The notes under the pieces: generated by a model | Seen by the model: only the letters and a program-made list of their open reading frames with translations | What the model was told of the DNA's origin: nothing | The model's database searches: none | Origin: an uncultured Candidatus Saccharibacteria bacterium | GTDB taxonomy: Bacteria > Patescibacteriota > Minisyncoccia > Phycocordibacterales > Phycocordibacteraceae | DNA length: 64,000 bases | NCBI GenBank assembly: GCA_964569655.1 | Contig: CAZMTN010000001.1 | Coordinates: forward strand, 64,542 to 128,541 | Direction: 5' to 3' | Shown: piece after piece, positions 4,240 to 24,458 of the stretch | Layout of the letters: every line of letters starts with the position of its first letter | Position numbering within the stretch: the stretch's first letter is position 1 | Made by a program: the position numbers and the translations under genes

Positions 4240-4977
4240 ATGAAAGAAACATTCCTCAATAACCAGTTCGTGCCGCTCGGCATCTTGCTCGCATCGGGCC
4301 TCATCGTCGTTGGCCTCATCGCGTCGGGGACAGCCCTGTCCATCAAGAACGCGAATAATACGCTCTCGGTGACGGGTTCCGCAGAGATTGAGGCCACCGC
4401 GGATACCGTGAAGTGGACGGTGACGGCCCAGCGTTACGCAACCGAAGGCGGGGTGGGCGCGGCTACCGCGCAGGTAGGCAGCGACGTGCAACGCGTCATC
4501 GCGTATCTCACGAATGCGGGAGTGGCGGAAGCCGACATCCAGATCGGCACTCTCCACACGGATCAGGATTATTCATACAACCAGGACGCGAACGCGCCGA
4601 AGCGCTACGCGGTCCGCCAGGACGTGACGGTGAACTCAAGCGATCCGGAGGGTATCCAGCGCCTCTCGCAGAACATCACCTCGCTCTCGAGCCAGGGAAT
4701 CCTCCTCCAGGTCTACGATCCCCAGTACTACATCTCGACGCTTCCGGAGATACGCGTATCGCTCGTCGGCAAGGCGGTCGAGGATGCGAAGGCGCGCGCC
4801 GAGCAGATCGCCGAGAGCACGGGGCAGTCCGTCGGCCGCCTCCAGTCCGCATCTACCGGCGTGGTGCAGGTGCTCGCACCTAATTCCACCGATGTCGCCG
4901 ACTACGGCAGCTACGACACAATGACCATCGAGAAGCGGGTGATGGTCACGGTCCGGGCGACGTTCTTCGTCCGTTAG
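4240..4977 (+). CDS. SIMPL-domain (DUF541) protein with N-terminal membrane anchor
   Basis: N-terminal TM (FVPLGILLASGLIVVGLIASG) followed by a SIMPL-like repeat pattern. This is a family of periplasmic oxidative-stress-associated proteins. Confidence 0.7.
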   Translation: MKETFLNNQFVPLGILLASGLIVVGLIASGTALSIKNANNTLSVTGSAEIEATADTVKWTVTAQRYATEGGVGAATAQVGSDVQRVIAYLTNAGVAEADIQIGTLHTDQDYSYNQDANAPKRYAVRQDVTVNSSDPEGIQRLSQNITSLSSQGILLQVYDPQYYISTLPEIRVSLVGKAVEDAKARAEQIAESTGQSVGRLQSASTGVVQVLAPNSTDVADYGSYDTMTIEKRVMVTVRATFFVR

Positions 4978-4978
4978 C

Positions 4979-5416
4979 ATGGAAGGGCCGGAGAAAAAGG
5001 CGGCCAGTACGGATCTCGGAGAATACGCACGCAAGAAGCGGGAAGAAGGTGAGCGGCCCTATAGCAAGTCTCCGGAGCTCAAGATGATCTGCGACCAGAT
5101 GCGCCCGTCTTTCGAAAAGCCCGAGGTGCGCGAAGCATACCCGGGCCTTACTCCAGAAGCGCTTATGCAGGTGTACATGGAAGCATTGGTCATCATGCGG
5201 GACTGCACCGCCATCCAGCATGCCGAATCCGAGAAGATCGCGGAAGGTGCGAGTACGCAAGAGCTCGCTGCAGCGATCATCAGGGCCCATCAGTACGGCA
5301 TGAACCCGCAGACAGCCCCGCAATATCTCGCATACGCGGTCCAGATTTTTGCCGACATGAATATTCCGGATCTCGAGCCTACGCCTCCTTCTCGAACGCC
5401 AGACACACCGAATTGA
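4979..5416 (+). CDS. hypothetical protein (145 aa)
   Basis: Starts 1 nt after the SIMPL gene stop with the same TAGcATGGAAGG junction as ORF 2529. E/K/A-rich soluble protein. Its 3' end overlaps the msrB 3' end by 38 nt in convergent orientation. Confidence 0.4.
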   Translation: MEGPEKKAASTDLGEYARKKREEGERPYSKSPELKMICDQMRPSFEKPEVREAYPGLTPEALMQVYMEALVIMRDCTAIQHAESEKIAEGASTQELAAAIIRAHQYGMNPQTAPQYLAYAVQIFADMNIPDLEPTPPSRTPDTPN

Positions 5417-5750
5417 TGCAGTAGCGCTTCCCGCCGGTTTCCGCCGGGCCGTCGTCGAAGACGTGTCCAAGATGGCTGCCGCAGCGTTTGCAGAATACCT
5501 CGGTACGATTCCCGTCTGGACGCGTCCCTACGTTCTCCGCGACCGCCGGGTCCGTGAAGGACGGCCAGCCGGTGCCTGAATCGAATTTCGTGTCAGAGCC
5601 GAAGAGCTCGTTCCCGCATACCTTGCAGCGGTACGCGCCTTTCTCATGGTTGTCGACATAGGCGCCGGAGAAAGGGGCTTCCGTGCCTCGTTCGCGAAGC
5701 ACGTGATACTCCTCGGCGCTCAGCTTCCGCTTGATTTCTTCCTCATCCAT
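5379..5750 (-). CDS. msrB: peptide-methionine (R)-S-oxide reductase
   Basis: SelR domain with CxxC zinc pairs (CKVCGNELF ... CKRCGSHLGHVF) and the conserved C-terminal RYCINS. Confidence 0.9.
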   Translation of the reverse strand: MDEEEIKRKLSAEEYHVLRERGTEAPFSGAYVDNHEKGAYRCKVCGNELFGSDTKFDSGTGWPSFTDPAVAENVGTRPDGNRTEVFCKRCGSHLGHVFDDGPAETGGKRYCINSVCLAFEKEA

Positions 5751-18299: not shown

Positions 18300-18372
18300 G
18301 AGGTACTCCTATGCTTGGCTGCTACCGCTATACCACAGTTGCCTTTCCCCCTCAACGTTATAAAATGTAGGC

Positions 18373-18930
18373 ATGACCACCATTTACATTATCCTGGGCA
18401 TCGTCGCCGTGCTCGTGCTCTGGGCGGTATTCTCGTACAACCGCTTCGTGAGCCTCGTGAACCGCGCGAAGGAAGCCTGGTCCGACATCAACGTGCAGCT
18501 GAAGCGCCGTTACGACCTCATCCCGAACCTCGTGGAGACGGTGAAGGGATACGCGACCCACGAGGCTGCGACCTTCCAGAAGGTCACCGATGCGCGCACC
18601 GCCGCTATGGGCGCCGCGGGCGACCCGGCGCACAAGGCCGAGGCCGAGAACATGCTCACGGACGCGCTCAAGTCACTCTTCGCTGTTTCCGAGGCGTACC
18701 CGGACCTCAAGGCGAATCAGAACTTCCTCGAGCTCCAGCGCGAGCTCTCCGACACCGAGAACAAGATCCAGGCGTCCCGCCGCTTCTACAACTCGACCGT
18801 CATGAGCCTCAATACGGCCATCGAGTCGTTCCCGGGGAACCTCATCGCGAACACATTCTCGTTTGCTACCATGGACCTCTTCGAGCTCGCTAATCCTTCC
18901 GAAGCCGAGCCGGTGAAGGTTGCCTTCTAA
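18373..18930 (+). CDS. LemA-family protein
   Basis: N-terminal TM plus LemA core (YNRFVSLVNRAKEAWSDINVQLKRRYDLIPNLV). Canonical partner of the downstream htpX. TATAAAAT ends 8 nt before the ATG. Confidence 0.85.
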   Translation: MTTIYIILGIVAVLVLWAVFSYNRFVSLVNRAKEAWSDINVQLKRRYDLIPNLVETVKGYATHEAATFQKVTDARTAAMGAAGDPAHKAEAENMLTDALKSLFAVSEAYPDLKANQNFLELQRELSDTENKIQASRRFYNSTVMSLNTAIESFPGNLIANTFSFATMDLFELANPSEAEPVKVAF

Positions 18931-18959
18931 ACGTTCCTGCGGCATCGCCGCTCCAATCC

Positions 18960-19856
18960 ATGCCTTCTCTCTACCACGAACGTTCATCGAATCTCTGGAA
19001 GACGTGGTTCCTCATGGCCGCGTTCCTCATCCTCGTCATCCTCATCGGGTACGGGGTGTCGTGGTACTACGATACGTCCGTTTTCCTCTACGTCGCGGTG
19101 GCGATCGCCGTCTTCACGAATTTCTTCAGCTACTGGTTCTCGGACCGGGTGGCGCTCTCGCTCACGGGCGCCAAGCCCGCAACTCGTGCTGAGCACTTCG
19201 ACCTCTACACGGTGACGGAGAACCTCTCCATCGCGGCCGGCATGCCGATGCCGCGCATCTACGTGATCCAGGACCCCGCGCCGAACGCCTTCGCGACCGG
19301 GCGCAACGAGAAGCACGCGGTGGTAGCCGTAACCACCGGCCTCCTCTCCATGATGGATCGGGCGGAGCTCGAGGGCGTGATCGCGCACGAGCTCTCGCAT
19401 ATCCGTAACCGCGACATCCTCCTCATGACGGTCGCCGTGGTGCTCGCGGGCTTCATCGCCATCGTCGCGGATATCTTCCTCCATATGGCGCACATGGGCG
19501 GCGGCAAGGGGAACGAGAAGGGGAGCGCGCTCTTCATGGTGTTCGCGGTGGTGGGCTTCATCCTGGCGCCGATCGCAGCGCAGCTCATCCAGATGGCCAT
19601 CTCGCGCCGCCGCGAGTACCTCGCGGATGCGTCCGGCGCCTTGCTTACGCGCTATCCGGACGGCCTTGCGCGCGCGCTCGTGAAGATCGGCAGCTACGGC
19701 ATGCCGATGAAGAAGGCCAATCACGCGACCGCGCACCTTTTCATAGGAGACCCGTTCGGCGCGCGCGCGGGAAAGTGGGTGGAGCGCCTCTTCGCGACGC
19801 ACCCGCCGGTGAAGGACCGCGTGAGCGCGCTTATCGGCGGGAAGCAAGGGGCCTAG
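18960..19856 (+). CDS. htpX: M48 zinc metalloprotease HtpX
   Basis: HELSHI zinc motif, HtpX TM topology, 298 aa. Confidence 0.9.
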   Translation: MPSLYHERSSNLWKTWFLMAAFLILVILIGYGVSWYYDTSVFLYVAVAIAVFTNFFSYWFSDRVALSLTGAKPATRAEHFDLYTVTENLSIAAGMPMPRIYVIQDPAPNAFATGRNEKHAVVAVTTGLLSMMDRAELEGVIAHELSHIRNRDILLMTVAVVLAGFIAIVADIFLHMAHMGGGKGNEKGSALFMVFAVVGFILAPIAAQLIQMAISRRREYLADASGALLTRYPDGLARALVKIGSYGMPMKKANHATAHLFIGDPFGARAGKWVERLFATHPPVKDRVSALIGGKQGA

Positions 19857-19876
19857 CCATAAAGAAGCAAGGCCTG

Positions 19877-20206
19877 GTGATCCCTGATTGGATACATGCT
19901 GATCCCGATTTTCGCGTCGCGTGTGTCCGCGGACTTGTCGATACAGATGGCTGCCTTTACGTGCATAGACACAAGATCGGGGAGAAGGTGTATAAGAACA
20001 TAGGCTTCTGCTTCTCAAGCCGCTCCCCGCGACTCCTGGGCCAGGTATTCGAGATGTTTGAAGAATTTGGACTTTTCCCGCATATTGATAAGCGAGGACA
20101 GAATATCTATCTGTACCGGGCTGAATCAGTGGCACGGTATCTGGACATTTTCGGAACCTCGAATGACCGCATAGGGAAGGTATATAGAAACTGGAGAGGT
20201 GGCTGA
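19877..20206 (+). pseudogene. LAGLIDADG homing-endonuclease-like ORF fragment (single motif), low GC, running into tRNA-Ser
   Basis: GLVDTDGCLYV matches the LAGLIDADG consensus. The downstream helix pattern (IGFCFSSRSPRLLGQVFEMFEEFG) is typical of this fold. It is about 110 aa from a GTG at 19877, and its last 4 codons and stop lie inside tRNA-Ser. Local GC is about 50% against about 62% in the flanks. There is no in-frame ATG after the htpX stop. Confidence 0.45.
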
Positions 20207-20279
20207 GTGGTCGAAAGCACCACCTTGGAAAGGTGGCAGGCGGGAAACTGCCTCGAGGGTTCGAATCCCTCCCTCTCCG
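20193..20279 (+). tRNA. tRNA-Ser (anticodon GGA), type II with long variable arm
   Basis: GGAGAGG acceptor, anticodon loop TTGGAAA, variable arm CAGGCGGGAAACTGCCTC, T-arm GAGGGTTCGAATCCCTC, 3' acceptor CCTCTCC. CCA is not encoded. Confidence 0.9.
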
Positions 20280-20348
20280 CATTAGATTCATTGTACCCAC
20301 AGCCGAGGAATGGTAGGTTCTCGGTAGTCTGAACCTTAGGAGGCAGCC

Positions 20349-20843
20349 ATGATGGACGTGCATTTGTCTGCACGCCCACGCGTGCAGATTCCCTCAACGA
20401 TAACGTCGATAGCGCAGAAAGCCGTGGAGGCCGGATGCGATGTCGCTCCGGTTCCCAGGTACAGGAAGAAAGGGAGGCTGACGGCTATGAAGACGAGGCA
20501 ACTGCTCGTGAACGGGCATGCGTGCGCCGTCTTCACCGTCAAGTCGAAGCGAAGGACGAACGGCAGCGTCCGTCTGACGACCGGATTCAGCACTAAGCCG
20601 AGCGTACTCCAATCATTCGAAACGCTCATCGTGCATACGAAGGTCGAAGGATATCCGGAGCACGTGTTCGTCGTCCCGACGACAGTGCTGTGCTCGAAGC
20701 ACTTCAGGCCGGGTATGGGCGAGATTTCGTTCCGCCTCCCCCTCGAGAAGCTGCCCGAATACCATGGTGTTAAACAGCGCATCGATTGGTGGAGCTATGA
20801 GGATGCGTGGCATCTCCTGTCCAAGGCGCCCGTCTCGCAATGA
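20349..20843 (+). CDS. hypothetical protein (164 aa)
   Basis: Strong SD (AGGAGG) 6 nt before the ATG. Its own terminator overlaps the stop. No recognisable domain. Confidence 0.55.
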   Translation: MMDVHLSARPRVQIPSTITSIAQKAVEAGCDVAPVPRYRKKGRLTAMKTRQLLVNGHACAVFTVKSKRRTNGSVRLTTGFSTKPSVLQSFETLIVHTKVEGYPEHVFVVPTTVLCSKHFRPGMGEISFRLPLEKLPEYHGVKQRIDWWSYEDAWHLLSKAPVSQ

Positions 20844-20862
20844 GACGGGCGTTCCTCTTTGC
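20827..20862 (+). terminator. rho-independent terminator
   Basis: CGCCCGTCTC-GCAAT-GAGACGGGCG is a perfect 10-bp stem containing the TGA stop, followed by TTCCTCTTTGC. Confidence 0.6.
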
Positions 20863-20895
20863 TACAATGCCCGCATTACCCTCTAGATTTTCCGT

Positions 20896-21339
20896 ATGCA
20901 GAAAGTAAGCACGTACCTCAATTTCCCAGGAAAGACCGAAGAAGCTTTCAATTTCTATAGATCAGTGTTCGGCGGGGAATTCGTCGGCGGCATCAACCGA
21001 TTCGGGGATATCCCGGCTGAGGCGCAGCAGGGCATGCCGCCGATGACGGAAGCGGACAAGAACCTCGTCATGCACATCCAGCTCGACATCCTCGATGGCC
21101 ACGCGCTCATGGGCACGGATGCATCCGAGTCGATGGGGCAGAAGATTGTGGTGGGCAACAACGTGAGTGTGAGCCTCCACCCGGATACTCGCGAGGAAGC
21201 AGACCGCCTCTTCAAGGCGCTCTCCGAGGGAGGGAAGATAGAGATGCCGATGCAGGATATGTTCTGGGGCGACTACTTCGGCGCCTTCTCCGACAAGTTC
21301 GGCATCAACTGGATGGTGAATTGCACCGCGAAAGCATAA
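20896..21339 (+). CDS. VOC-family protein (PhnB-like glyoxalase/bleomycin-resistance fold)
   Basis: MQKVSTYLNFPGKTEEAFNFYRSVFGGEF and 147-aa length fit the PhnB/3-demethylubiquinone-9 3-methyltransferase-domain family. Confidence 0.75.
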   Translation: MQKVSTYLNFPGKTEEAFNFYRSVFGGEFVGGINRFGDIPAEAQQGMPPMTEADKNLVMHIQLDILDGHALMGTDASESMGQKIVVGNNVSVSLHPDTREEADRLFKALSEGGKIEMPMQDMFWGDYFGAFSDKFGINWMVNCTAKA

Positions 21340-23918
21340 TGATCGAGACCCGCGCATCAGAGAGCCGGTTCTGGAGCCTCACTCCTGCGGAGACGGCGAA
21401 GATGCTCGGGACGGACACCGAATCCGGCCTGTCAGAGGCCGAGGCTAAGGATCGGCTGGACGCGCACGGCAGGAACGCCATCCGCACTTCGAAGAGGACG
21501 GCATGGTTTTTCATACTCCTCAGTCAGCTCAAGAGCCCGCTCATCCTCGTGCTCATCCTGGCGGGCATCATCACGCTGATTATCTCCCATTACCGCGACG
21601 CGGCTTTCATCTTCATCGCCGTCATCGTGAATTCCGCGCTCGGCTTCTATCAGGAGAACAAGGCTGAGCAGGCGCTCGCGCAGCTCAAGACCTACTTGCG
21701 CCAGCGGGCCCGGGTCATCCGCGGCGGCAGGGAGCATGAGGTAGACGCGGAGGAACTGGTGCCGGGCGACGTCATCCGGCTCGCGCAGGGCGATCGCGTG
21801 CCGGCGGACGGCCGCCTCATCTTCGCGAACGATTTCCAGGTGGACGAGGCCATCCTCACCGGCGAATCCCTCCCGGTCATAAAGGCGGAAGCCAGCGTGC
21901 CGGAAGCCGCTCCGCTCACTGACCAAGCGCCTATGGTCTTCGCGGGCACGCTGGTCACGCAGGGAGTATGCGCCGCTATCGTATGCCGCACCGGCTCCGT
22001 GACCGAGCTCGGCAAGATCGCATCGCTCATCGCCGATGCGGAGAACGAGGAGACGCCGCTCCAAGCGGCCATAACGCGATTCAGCATCTACTCGAGCCTC
22101 GCCCTCACGGGCCTGACGCTCGTCGTATTCTTCGTCGGCCTCCTCGCCGGTCAATCAGTCCTCGATATGTTCCTCACCTCCGTCGCGATCGCCGTGTCGG
22201 CTATCCCGGAGGGACTGCCGATCTCCATGACGGTGATCCTCGCGGTCGGGGTAGAGCGCATGGCCAAGCGCAAGGGCGTGGTGCGGAAGCTGGTCGCGGC
22301 CGAGGCGCTCGGCAGCACCACCCTCATCCTCACGGATAAGACCGGAACGCTCACGATGGCGGACATGGTGCTGTCGCAGATAGTTCCGTTCGGCCTCACC
22401 GATACCCGGCTCATCGAGCGAGCGCTCACGAACGCGAACGTGCTCGTCGAGAATCCGGAGGATCATCCGCAGGCGTGGCGCATGAACGGCAGGATCATGG
22501 AGCGGGCGCTGGTGCGCGCTTCGGCGCTCCGGGGCATGTCGTACGCGGACATCATGAAGAAGGAGCACGTGCTCGAAGGCGCGCCCTTCAACGCGGTGCA
22601 GAAGTTCTCTGCCTCCCGCATTCTCGAGGAGGGGAAGCAGCTGCTCGTCGTATTCGGCGCTCCGGACATCCTGCTCTCGCATTCGGCGCTCGACCCTGAA
22701 GAGAAGCGGCGGCTCAGGGACCAGATAGCAGCGCTCGCGTCTTCCGGCGAGCGCGTGCTCGGCGTCGCATCGAAGGAGATTCAGGACAGCGCCATCAGCG
22801 CGCACCTGCCGCTCTCCGGCCTGTCCTTCGACGGGCTCATCACGTTCCATGACCCGATCCGCCCCGGTATCAGGCATGCGATCGGGCGCGTTGCCGGTGC
22901 CGGCATCAGGACGGTGATCATGACGGGCGACCATCAGGGGACTGCGGTCGCGGTCGCGAGGGAGCTCGGCCTTCCGTCCGAGGGACGCGCGGTCCTCGAC
23001 GCAGCAGAGCTCGCTGAGCTTTCCGAAGAGGAACTCAAGGCACGCCTCTCCGGGCTCTCCGTCATCTCCCGCGTGACGCCGTTCGACAAGCTCCGCATCG
23101 CCCGGCTCTATCAGGCTGCAGGCGAGATCGTCGCCATGACAGGCGACGGCGTGAACGACGCGCCGTCCATCAAGCAGGCGAACGTCGGCATCGCGATGGG
23201 TTCGGGCACGGAGGTCGCGCAGAGCGTCGCCGACCTCGTGCTCCTCGACGACAATTTCGAGACCATCGTCGCGGCAGTGGAGGAGGGAAGGCAGATCCTC
23301 GCCAATATACGGAAGGTGCTCGTATACCTCCTCTCGAATGTCGCCGACGGCCTCATCCTCATCGGCGGGTCCCTGCTTCTCGGGCTCCCGCTCCCGATGA
23401 ACGCGCTCCAGATTCTGTGGGTCAATTTCTTTACGGACAGCTTCCCGGCAGTCGCGTTCGCGTTCGAGAAGGATCCGGACAGCCTCTCGCGCCGCCCGAG
23501 GCGGCTTAAGGACGGCCTGTTCGACCCGCTCATGAAATTCCTCATCGTCGTCATCGGCCTCTCGACGAGCGCATGCCTCTTCGTGCTCTATGCGACCCTG
23601 CTCAAGCTCGGATTCGACGAGGCGACGGTGCGCACGTTCACGTTCGCCGCGTTCGGTACCTATACGCTTCTCGTGGCGCTATCCGTGCGCAGCCTCGAAC
23701 GCAGTATCCTCTCGTATCCGCTGTTCTCTAACCGATACCTCACGGGCGGTATCCTCATCGGCTTCGTGCTCATGGTCGCGGCCGTATACCTGCCGCCGCT
23801 CCAGGCGCTCTTCGGGACGGTGCCGCTGCCGCTCGCCTGGGTCCTCGGCGTGCTCCTTGTCGGCGCGCTCAACATCCTCTTCATCGAGCTCGGCAAGGCG
23901 TTCTTCAGGTCGCGCTAG
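21339..23918 (+). CDS. cation-transporting P-type ATPase (type II, Ca2+/Mg2+-like)
   Basis: DKTGTLT phosphorylation motif, TGDGVNDAPS hinge, 10 TM layout. ATG at 21339 overlaps the upstream stop (TAATG). An alternative TTG start is at 21321. Confidence 0.9.
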   Translation: MIETRASESRFWSLTPAETAKMLGTDTESGLSEAEAKDRLDAHGRNAIRTSKRTAWFFILLSQLKSPLILVLILAGIITLIISHYRDAAFIFIAVIVNSALGFYQENKAEQALAQLKTYLRQRARVIRGGREHEVDAEELVPGDVIRLAQGDRVPADGRLIFANDFQVDEAILTGESLPVIKAEASVPEAAPLTDQAPMVFAGTLVTQGVCAAIVCRTGSVTELGKIASLIADAENEETPLQAAITRFSIYSSLALTGLTLVVFFVGLLAGQSVLDMFLTSVAIAVSAIPEGLPISMTVILAVGVERMAKRKGVVRKLVAAEALGSTTLILTDKTGTLTMADMVLSQIVPFGLTDTRLIERALTNANVLVENPEDHPQAWRMNGRIMERALVRASALRGMSYADIMKKEHVLEGAPFNAVQKFSASRILEEGKQLLVVFGAPDILLSHSALDPEEKRRLRDQIAALASSGERVLGVASKEIQDSAISAHLPLSGLSFDGLITFHDPIRPGIRHAIGRVAGAGIRTVIMTGDHQGTAVAVARELGLPSEGRAVLDAAELAELSEEELKARLSGLSVISRVTPFDKLRIARLYQAAGEIVAMTGDGVNDAPSIKQANVGIAMGSGTEVAQSVADLVLLDDNFETIVAAVEEGRQILANIRKVLVYLLSNVADGLILIGGSLLLGLPLPMNALQILWVNFFTDSFPAVAFAFEKDPDSLSRRPRRLKDGLFDPLMKFLIVVIGLSTSACLFVLYATLLKLGFDEATVRTFTFAAFGTYTLLVALSVRSLERSILSYPLFSNRYLTGGILIGFVLMVAAVYLPPLQALFGTVPLPLAWVLGVLLVGALNILFIELGKAFFRSR

Positions 23919-23924
23919 TCCCGT

Positions 23925-24281
23925 ATGGAATTCAGCGGCACGGTCGGGAAGGGAAACGGCGCAGGGACGAAGCTCGGTTTCCCGACGGCGAACATCCCGT
24001 TGGACGATCCTGGATGCTCAGGGATCTATGCGGGCGTGGTGGAGTTCGAAGGGAAGTCGCACCCGGCAGCGATCTATGCCGATCAGCGGCGGAATCTGCT
24101 CGAGGCTCATCTTTTGGATTTCTCGAATGACTTGTACGGCAAGCGGATAACCGTGACGCTGCATGAAAAGCTCCGCGAGGATACGACGTTCAGCGACATC
24201 GAATCCTTGATCCGTCAAATCAGCGAGGATGTGCTTAGCGCGCGTTCATTTTTCGCGCGGAAGGCACCTGTGGATAACTAG
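23925..24281 (+). CDS. monofunctional riboflavin kinase
   Basis: GxGxG...LGFPTAN motif (GTVGKGNGAGTKLGFPTANI). 118 aa, matching the RibF C-terminal kinase domain only. Confidence 0.75.
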   Translation: MEFSGTVGKGNGAGTKLGFPTANIPLDDPGCSGIYAGVVEFEGKSHPAAIYADQRRNLLEAHLLDFSNDLYGKRITVTLHEKLREDTTFSDIESLIRQISEDVLSARSFFARKAPVDN

Positions 24282-24458
24282 GGAAGCGGATTCTTTTCCA
24301 GACGAGATTTCGCGACACGGCGGCAGGTGCTCCAGTGCTCCGGGATCGGCCCTCAGCCCCCCTCGTGTGCTCCCGATGAAGCCCTCGGCGGCTTACCGCC
24401 GTGAGACGGATGCATCCGCGCACCAGCTACGGACCCTCAGCATGCATTGTGCGGTAAA

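Follow-up and report, generated by a model that had tools for sequence, protein, structure and literature searches.

What is an endonuclease-like open reading frame (ORF) doing between the peptidase gene htpX and a serine transfer RNA (tRNA) gene, and why does it run on into the tRNA? The question is raised by a 64,000-nucleotide (nt) stretch of DNA from an uncultured Candidatus Saccharibacteria bacterium, referred to throughout as the window. We find that positions 19857-20192 of the window are probably what is left, on the 3' side, of a free-standing LAGLIDADG homing endonuclease gene with two motifs, belonging to a cassette family that would target tRNA-Ser and decayed at this site. Considered by itself, the window feature is an ordinary decayed homing endonuclease gene.

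The endonuclease frame comprises 116 codons (19856..20203; AIKKQGLVIPDW...GLVDTDGCLYV...VYRNWRGG), and its TGA, at 20204-06, lies 14 nt into tRNA-Ser(GGA). An initial annotation, made from the letters alone, had described a LAGLIDADG frame that follows the htpX stop and ends at this point in the tRNA; its coordinates and Pfam agree, and the hidden Markov model check that it had proposed gave a LAGLIDADG_3 (PF14528) match above the cut-off (E=1.5e-7; 32.0 bits against a cut-off of 22.5; profile positions 2-80 of 82). Some of its details needed correction. The frame does follow the htpX stop, but it is open back to 19775, inside htpX. The GTG at 19877 is as described, but the supposed lack of an in-frame ATG is not, one being present at 20054-56, 3' of the motif. 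The features of the locus are as follows.

18339-18366, 5' of lemA: promoter-like TTGCCT-16-TAAAAT (consensus scan)
18373..18930, + strand: lemA, an ORF and the first gene of a lemA-htpX pair conserved in relatives
18960..19856, + strand: htpX, M48 peptidase (Peptidase_M48 PF01435, E=3.9e-34, 118.5 bits), stop codon TAG at 19854-56
19846..19872, + strand: proposed deletion or fusion junction of the htpX 3' end to about codon 97-105 of the endonuclease gene, exact base not placeable
19857..20192, + strand: probable LAGLIDADG homing endonuclease gene remnant, linker and complete C-terminal domain (residues ~100-217 of ~225)
19877..19879, + strand: in-frame GTG, sole candidate start 5' of the motif, with a weak AAGG 4 nt upstream
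19931..19963, + strand: second LAGLIDADG motif, GLVDTDGCLYV, holding the family-invariant D-T-D-G
20192..20206, + strand: overlap of ORF and tRNA, W-R-G-G codons and TGA stop being tRNA nt 1-14
20193..20280 (ARAGORN) or 20193..20279 (Rfam, 62 bits), + strand: tRNA-Ser(GGA) with canonical type A D-arm GGAGAGGTGGCTGAGTGGTCGAAAGC
20281..20901, + strand: variable segment 3' of the tRNA with an orphan ORF at 20349-20843 (164 amino acids, aa), delimited by comparison with the closest relative, locus L086

The remnant is the back half of a two-domain gene

A search of 5.8 billion proteins returned 18 homologues of the remnant at 49-71% identity. The longer of these, called at 190-203 aa, are 50-65% identical to it over 95-97% of the fragment, and in the alignment these longer ones bear a first motif, LAEFxGIxxGDGGI, that is missing in the window. 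Reading of the DNA at two fetched loci, L001 and L003, shows GTG starts 5' of the called ATG and true ORFs of 225-237 aa. Synonymous sites are saturated, since the nearest homologues are at most 65% identical. Full-length relatives with both motifs occupy the same slot between htpX and tRNA-Ser, and when they were compared with the window by tblastn, residues 110-235 matched at 19865-20203 only; the N-terminal half was absent from the whole 64 kb. Numbered on relatives of about 225 aa, the stretch aligned with the window is 110-220. A split gene with its second half elsewhere in the window is ruled out by this confinement of the matches. The initial annotation had proposed a homing endonuclease remnant at a tRNA locus and had held that full-length ORFs with a normal start in relatives would speak against it. 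Such ORFs do exist, with ~225 aa, two motifs and their own start codon, yet they confirm the remnant, as the window has the back half only.

The motif itself is well preserved. GLVDTDG is invariant among 15 aligned sequences (invariant columns G26 L27 V28 D29 T30 D31 G32 C33), the acidic residues of the motifs are conserved in the family, and the remnant retains 14/14 family-invariant residues. No sequence relative of the family profile was found in the PDB at E<=0.01, so a fold search was needed. An AlphaFold2 model of the fragment (predicted local distance difference test, pLDDT, 92) has the elements H-E-E-H-E-H-H, with three strands rather than four, and agrees with the alpha-beta-beta-alpha-beta-beta-alpha core of the LAGLIDADG superfamily. 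The best Foldseek matches of this model in the PDB were I-Tsp061I (2dch, E=1.5e-5), I-SmaMI, I-AniI and I-CreI, and the top 24 at E<=0.001 were all LAGLIDADG endonucleases. As modelled, the fragment is one complete C-terminal domain with one half of an active site. Two motif domains, in one chain or as a homodimer, make up an enzyme of this kind; the intact relatives have both, while the window copy has one. Judged by its sequence, the window copy is a gene fragment of the LAGLIDADG family and not a functional member, because only the second domain is kept, and it can hardly be a nuclease.

Might the ORF instead be left over from a group I intron or an intein that was lost at the tRNA locus? 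The initial annotation had allowed for an intron origin, and some tRNA genes of Patescibacteria do contain group I introns (PMC13011429). We consider such an origin extremely unlikely. An Rfam search of 18500-21500 at E<=1 yielded the tRNA and two chance matches, and ARAGORN places an uninterrupted tRNA-Ser(GGA) here, so a group I intron-encoded endonuclease was rejected. All intact relatives stand free, outside the mature tRNA, with their own promoter-like leader. The published survey describes HNH endonuclease genes in tRNA-Asn introns and LAGLIDADG genes in no Patescibacteria tRNA intron (PMC13011429). The intein option was rejected as well, a Pfam intein splicing domain being present in neither the fragment nor its full-length relatives and the remnant frame being out of phase with htpX.

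Guanine-plus-cytosine (GC) content across 19857-20192 is 0.494 (49.4%) against 0.613 (61.3%) for the window, and among all 336-nt windows sampled in 50-nt steps this segment is the minimum. The drop to about 50% was thus seen correctly in the initial annotation, but it is not confined exactly to the segment, as moderately low values (0.52-0.60) continue to ~20900. Gene GC lies below flank GC in 83/85 loci, by a mean of 7.4 points, which makes the drop in the window a trait of the whole family.

The family is linked to tRNA-Ser

How general is this arrangement? A scan of one genome per GTDB species gave 111 relatives, and 80 of these loci were fetched, all from Patescibacteria. At each of the 80 the gene stands directly upstream of a same-strand tRNA-Ser, called by ARAGORN at 79 and by BLAST at L041, whose contig ends with the first 40 nt of the tRNA. 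Relative to the end of homology, the tRNA start at the 79 ARAGORN loci ranges from 20 nt upstream to 98 nt downstream. The linked anticodons are GGA (34), GCT (37), TGA (7) and ACT (1), with one cut by the contig end. Neighbours 5' of the endonuclease gene vary, LemA-HtpX being found in one lineage only, and the metagenome-assembled genome CAZSQP01 carries two copies, at tRNA-Ser(GCT) and tRNA-Ser(TGA). An exhaustive profile search (E<=1e-30) brought the family to at least 343 protein clusters at 50% identity, and it appears strictly coupled to tRNA-Ser across the Candidate Phyla Radiation (CPR). A phage or viral vector was ruled out, IMG/VR and INPHARED holding no relatives of the endonuclease.

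That the ORF runs into the tRNA is no accident of decay but the usual arrangement in the GGA clade, a point that the initial annotation had missed. In 36/39 ORFs of this clade the first stop falls 12-143 nt inside the tRNA, most commonly at 14 or 23 nt, while in 30/37 ORFs of the GCT clade it falls 3-35 nt before the tRNA. Proteins linked to GCT or TGA tRNAs are ~335 aa long and carry an extra N-terminal helix-turn-helix (HTH) domain. In the GCT/TGA/ACT clade (L037-L085 and L108) a conserved basic, Trp-rich linker (…KKYG.IGGD…RKKKW..WW) precedes both LAGLIDADG domains, and most of these ORFs stop before the tRNA.

Leaders at many GGA-clade loci (L009, L010, L011, L013, L014, L016, L036, L170) contain GGTCTAGT(N15-33)ACTAGACC, the first arm, GGTCTAGT, being the D-arm part of the tRNA relic. 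The repeat may form a hairpin or serve the endonuclease as an operator. Next comes an extended -10-like TGnTATAAT, only 6-9 nt before the ATG, and such close spacing suggests that the GGA-clade endonuclease messenger RNA (mRNA) is leaderless. The conserved VYKNW codons (TATAAA) were considered as a -10 box for the tRNA and dropped, as this hexamer ends 4 nt before tRNA +1 at most loci against 9-10 nt at empty sites. ARAGORN also made ACT-anticodon tRNA-Ser calls at L068, L077 and L084, with only that of L084 linked to an endonuclease gene. A serine tRNA with A34 is unusual for bacteria, and these may be miscalls or a real oddity.

The closest relative carries a divergent full-length copy

How did the window copy lose its front half? 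The closest relative, L086, is 93.6% identical in HtpX and 85.7% identical in DNA over 3 kb, and in it 41 nt separate htpX from the first in-frame ATG of a full-length endonuclease gene, which tRNA-Ser(GGA) follows. In L086 htpX ends GGA GGG AAG TAA; in the window it ends GGC GGG AAG CAA GGG GCC TAG and is followed by CCATAAAG. The final three codons and stop of the window gene (CAA GGG GCC TAG, 19845-19856) are not in L086, where TAA stands in the place of CAA. These extra bases resemble endonuclease codons near residue 97-105 (L086 3344-3365), and it is because of this match that the endonuclease gene can be said to have supplied the window htpX with its final three codons and stop. The alignment of the two loci breaks at 19848, endonuclease homology restarts at window 19867 (L086 3374), and the leader, promoter, start codon and ~100 codons are missing from the window copy.

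The window and L086 also differ in what lies 3' of the junction. At the DNA level the final 144 nt of htpX are 90% identical but stump and tRNA together only 66%, the C-terminal endonuclease domains are 59.8% identical, the two tRNA-Ser(GGA) are of different types, and synteny restarts only at window 20902. To judge from these alignments, the stump is not the L086 gene with a piece deleted. A 9-nt direct repeat, GAAGCAAGG, at 19842-19850 and 19864-19872 brackets the htpX stop codon at the junction; it is probably either an internal KGL/QGL repeat of the endonuclease linker or a deletion microhomology.

The gene is patchy and repeatedly decayed

If the gene is mobile, related genomes should contain sites without it, and the initial annotation had asked for such an empty-site comparison. 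Among 80 metagenome loci fetched with an HtpX query, 50 have a same-strand tRNA-Ser(GGA) within 2.5 kb 3' of htpX, and the endonuclease gene is present at 2 of these 50 (L086 and L108); most htpX-tRNA-Ser sites in related genomes thus lack it. At eight of those loci the tRNA lies 25-157 nt from htpX. Many empty sites have a -10 box (TATAAC, TATACT or TATAAT) 9-10 nt 5' of the tRNA, while occupied sites have none. Side features were seen at other element-free loci: in L087 the space between htpX and the tRNA holds a small, very basic, high-GC ORF (1436-1708, ~90 aa, MSAKKKAKSAK...) and a terminator, and ~20 others likewise have htpX-tRNA spacers of 550-700 nt.

Degenerate copies are found alongside the empty sites. 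The window, L042, L166/L167 and L168 carry 5'-truncated copies, L170-172 combine an internal deletion with a frameshift, and L036 has a frameshift. Presence/absence polymorphism together with degenerate copies, as expected of a mobile homing endonuclease gene, is therefore found in this family. In two host pairs HtpX identity is well above endonuclease identity, at 93.6% against 59.8% for the window and L086 and 85.0% against 57.4% for L010 and L036. Over all 55 pairs, however, the two identities correlate (rho +0.57), which speaks against purely horizontal spread.

An alternative for the window copy is that it is still expressed from the GTG at 19877 by coupling to htpX translation, as a single-domain half-site binder that shields the tRNA gene from endonucleases or as an I-CreI-like homodimer. 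A frame open for 116 codons at 49% GC, the full set of 14 invariant residues and the compact modelled domain would fit such a product, as would the start 21 nt after the htpX stop with no terminator between, and L166 is another 5'-truncated copy, with its own ATG and promoter-like sequence. Nevertheless, there is no ATG before the motif, the AAGG before the GTG is weak and badly spaced, and the truncation residue varies among remnants (~84, ~100, ~113, ~122), so that there is no conserved short form. Selection for a short form had been considered from an apparent pair of truncated copies, P0007/P0013. This fell through: the deposited 138-aa P0013 looks truncated because of an assembly gap in L169 (GCA_040384185.1, JAWVGY010140626.1), where an N run and unrelated sequence at 284-293 split a full-length endonuclease gene whose N-terminal half is present upstream. 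We consider an expressed stump unlikely and retain the reading of a decayed gene.

Relics of tRNA-Ser lie beside the gene at several loci

What would happen to a tRNA gene at which a cassette arrives? All tRNA-Ser sequences were compared by BLAST with the loci after masking of annotated tRNAs, and relic distances were counted from the start of homology to the endonuclease gene. 5' tRNA-Ser relics, from nt 1 to 21-31, lie 35-75 nt upstream in L006, L013, L015 (27/27 nt), L025 (30/31), L027 and L036 (24/24), while in L029 the distance is ~140 nt. At L042 the copy is truncated at residue ~113 and joined without a gap to a 26/26-nt relic. The D-arm of the 5' relics is of type B (GCATAGTGGTCTAGTGC), as is usual for htpX-linked tRNA-Ser(GGA) at element-free sites and unlike the type A of the window tRNA. 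At all relic loci except L027 the complete tRNA after the endonuclease gene differs in type from the relic.

The clearest order is that of L036: native leader, 5' relic, frameshifted endonuclease gene, type-A tRNA, 128-nt spacer and 3' relic. The 3' relic extends from the T-loop to the acceptor strand (CGAATCTCTCCGCCTCTGCC) and is of type B, and its acceptor strand pairs with the 5' relic and not with the new tRNA, which argues that the resident tRNA gene was split and that the cassette supplies the replacement. A relic beside the element together with a divergent replacement is hence found in relatives such as L015, L036 and L042.

Several minor observations concern these tRNAs. 3' fragments of tRNA-Ser, from T-loop to acceptor end, lie 3' of the linked tRNA in L016 (5691-5723), L036 (4860-4894), L052 (~4890-4917), L059 (4808-4840) and L083 (~4355-4384). 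A conserved ...GTGAC directly precedes the fragment in L036, L016, L052 and L083, and a longer form, AAATTATNCGTGAC, is exact in L016, L036 and L059, in the last after the fragment. These sequences may be the right-hand boundary of the cassette, conserved among loci, or belong to another element that inserts in the T-loop. At the empty sites of the htpX-linked lineage (L087-L164) the tRNA-Ser(GGA) D-arm is an unusual one, GTCGCATAGTGGTCTAGTGC or GTCGGATAGTGGTTTATTCC in place of the canonical GCCGAGTGGTCGAAGGC, and GTGC|GCAC at tRNA nt 23-30 forms a perfect palindrome centred where the relics end.

A model for replacement of tRNA-Ser

These findings can be arranged into a model. The endonuclease would cut an element-free tRNA-Ser gene near nt 26/27, about the boundary of D-arm and anticodon stem. 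Repair from an occupied allele would then copy in a cassette of leader, endonuclease gene, complete tRNA-Ser and sometimes a short spacer. This would destroy the resident tRNA, of which a 5' relic and at times also a 3' one would remain, and the tRNA-Ser of the cassette would restore function. Gene and tRNA might be co-transcribed and separated by ribonuclease P (RNase P). In the GGA clade, where the ORF has no stop of its own and terminates in the D-arm of the delivered tRNA, such processing would cost the endonuclease its stop codon.

This architecture also bears on the form of decay. Since the ORF ends within the very bases that begin the tRNA, gene and tRNA are physically inseparable and deletions erode only the 5' side of the gene; a C-terminal stump against the tRNA, as in the window, follows. 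Here, a deletion or illegitimate junction would have fused the last codons of htpX to about codon 97-105, removing the leader, promoter, start codon and N-terminal domain with the first half of the active site. A simple consensus scan found no promoter- or terminator-like site between htpX and the tRNA, and the nearest promoter-like site 5' of the tRNA precedes lemA. Given this, transcription reading through from lemA-htpX most likely produces the window tRNA, which normal 5' processing would then release.

With somewhat more doubt than conviction, we propose that these loci represent an undescribed class of chromosomal homing-endonuclease cassettes in Patescibacteria. The cassettes would replace a resident tRNA-Ser and leave relics of it, and the first 14-23 nt of their own tRNA would serve as the last endonuclease codons and stop. 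A single transcript would then give rise to either mRNA or tRNA, with 5' processing removing the stop and limiting the endonuclease. The clades would have diversified onto GGA, GCT and TGA, and the type A and type B tRNA-Ser of the hosts would have been shaped by the conflict.

A number of points weigh against the replacement model or against the decay of the window copy. Relics of a second tRNA-Ser, 5' or 3', were not found in the window, nor was a recognisable relic in L001, L003 or L086. The linked tRNAs of L001 and L086 are 100%, and that of L003 90%, identical to empty-site tRNAs elsewhere, which leaves the immunity of occupied alleles unexplained. The proposed target position comes from the relic ends alone, and these range over nt 21-31. 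The searches started from the C-terminal motif or fragment and would miss copies without that part, so that the share of intact copies and the apparent absence of N-terminal-only stumps are biased by the query. The remnant, running through its 116 codons without a stop or frameshift and with every invariant residue in place, is either recent or still constrained. Finally, nearly all sampled copies are intact (~77/80 ORFs), and there is the moderate correlation of endonuclease identity with that of HtpX; both would also fit long vertical retention under selection.

The intactness of most copies and the correlation with HtpX, together with linkage to tRNA-Ser at all 80 loci, likewise favour a family that is not selfish at all, namely a domesticated, WhiA-like LAGLIDADG DNA- or RNA-binding protein that regulates or aids the adjacent tRNA-Ser, with the window copy as a lineage-specific loss. 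The HTH domain of the long forms (HTH_3, 29.9 bits) and a match of the L001 N-domain to LAGLIDADG_WhiA point the same way, although this match is sub-threshold (22.0 bits against a cut-off of 23.2). WhiA-like regulators have degenerate motifs without catalytic acids and a C-terminal HTH. In contrast, the acidic residues of both motifs are conserved in the present family, and its HTH is N-terminal and found in long forms only. Moreover, most related htpX-tRNA-Ser sites do without the gene and supply the tRNA with a promoter of its own, split resident tRNAs have left relics, gene GC is systematically under host GC, several copies have decayed independently, and the closest host pair bears very divergent copies. 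Domestication thus seems improbable to us, and the mobile cassette is the reading we carry forward.

Comparison with known mobile endonucleases

Free-standing two-domain LAGLIDADG enzymes (I-DmoI, I-Tsp061I, I-AniI, I-SmaMI) resemble the intact relatives in having two motifs with conserved acids, and the domain predicted for the window copy matches I-Tsp061I, I-SmaMI, I-AniI and I-CreI in fold. The present family differs from them in standing outside any intron or intein and in being tied to tRNA-Ser genes; in addition, the GGA-clade ORF lacks its own stop and the window copy has one domain only.

Intronless homing is familiar from T-even phages, whose Seg and Mob endonucleases are free-standing, with SegB in the T4 tRNA cluster. 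The likeness is a gene beside its target, with spread expected through co-conversion of the neighbouring DNA, here the linked tRNA. The T-even enzymes are GIY-YIG or HNH rather than LAGLIDADG and reside in phages rather than a chromosome, and to our knowledge the T-even cases show neither an overlap of ORF and tRNA nor relics.

The closest known analogue is the mobile ORFs (mORFs) of fungal mitochondria, which enter atp6, atp9, cox2 or nad3 with a duplicate of the gene's C-terminus (Allomyces atp6; Glomus) (PMC3630166). Shared with them are an intronless endonuclease gene within an essential gene, a foreign copy of the displaced part, and a native relic closer to the sequence of relatives. The present family is, however, a mirror image, in that the relic is the 5' part and the replacement lies 3' of the endonuclease gene. 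Its target is a tRNA and not a protein gene, its host is bacterial (CPR), and the whole tRNA is replaced.

Patescibacteria themselves have tRNA group I introns, at anticodon-loop positions of tRNA-Asn and tRNA-Asp and with rare endonuclease genes of HNH type (PMC13011429). These too are tRNA-associated mobile elements in the same phylum, but the present locus is intronless and its target is tRNA-Ser, and the term 'tRNASer' is absent from the survey. Full-text literature searches turned up no description of a linkage between an endonuclease and tRNA-Ser, which is not proof that none exists.

If the replacement model is true, it would represent a route for a homing endonuclease into an essential RNA gene that needs neither intron nor intein, and it would explain why closely related CPR genomes have very different tRNA-Ser(GGA) sequences. 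It would also warn annotators that ORFs can legitimately run into a tRNA, and would yield a collection of small natural LAGLIDADG enzymes (~225 aa) whose class of target site can be predicted.

The 3' flank of the tRNA

The 3' flank of tRNA-Ser is a second variable spot. The window has here the 164-aa ORF (20349-20843), without a Pfam match and without a homologue in any fetched locus, and L086 has an unrelated 255-aa ORF. That the 164-aa ORF is a piece of a larger conserved cassette was ruled out by this lack of homologues. A terminator-like hairpin lies at 20825-20853 within the same segment. Farther downstream, an 865-aa ORF (21321-23918), which reads by eye like a putative cation-transporting P-type ATPase, parts blocks that are contiguous in L086 (4597-5033, equal to window 20902-21338, and 5049-5484, equal to 23925-24360), and was either inserted in the window lineage or lost in L086.

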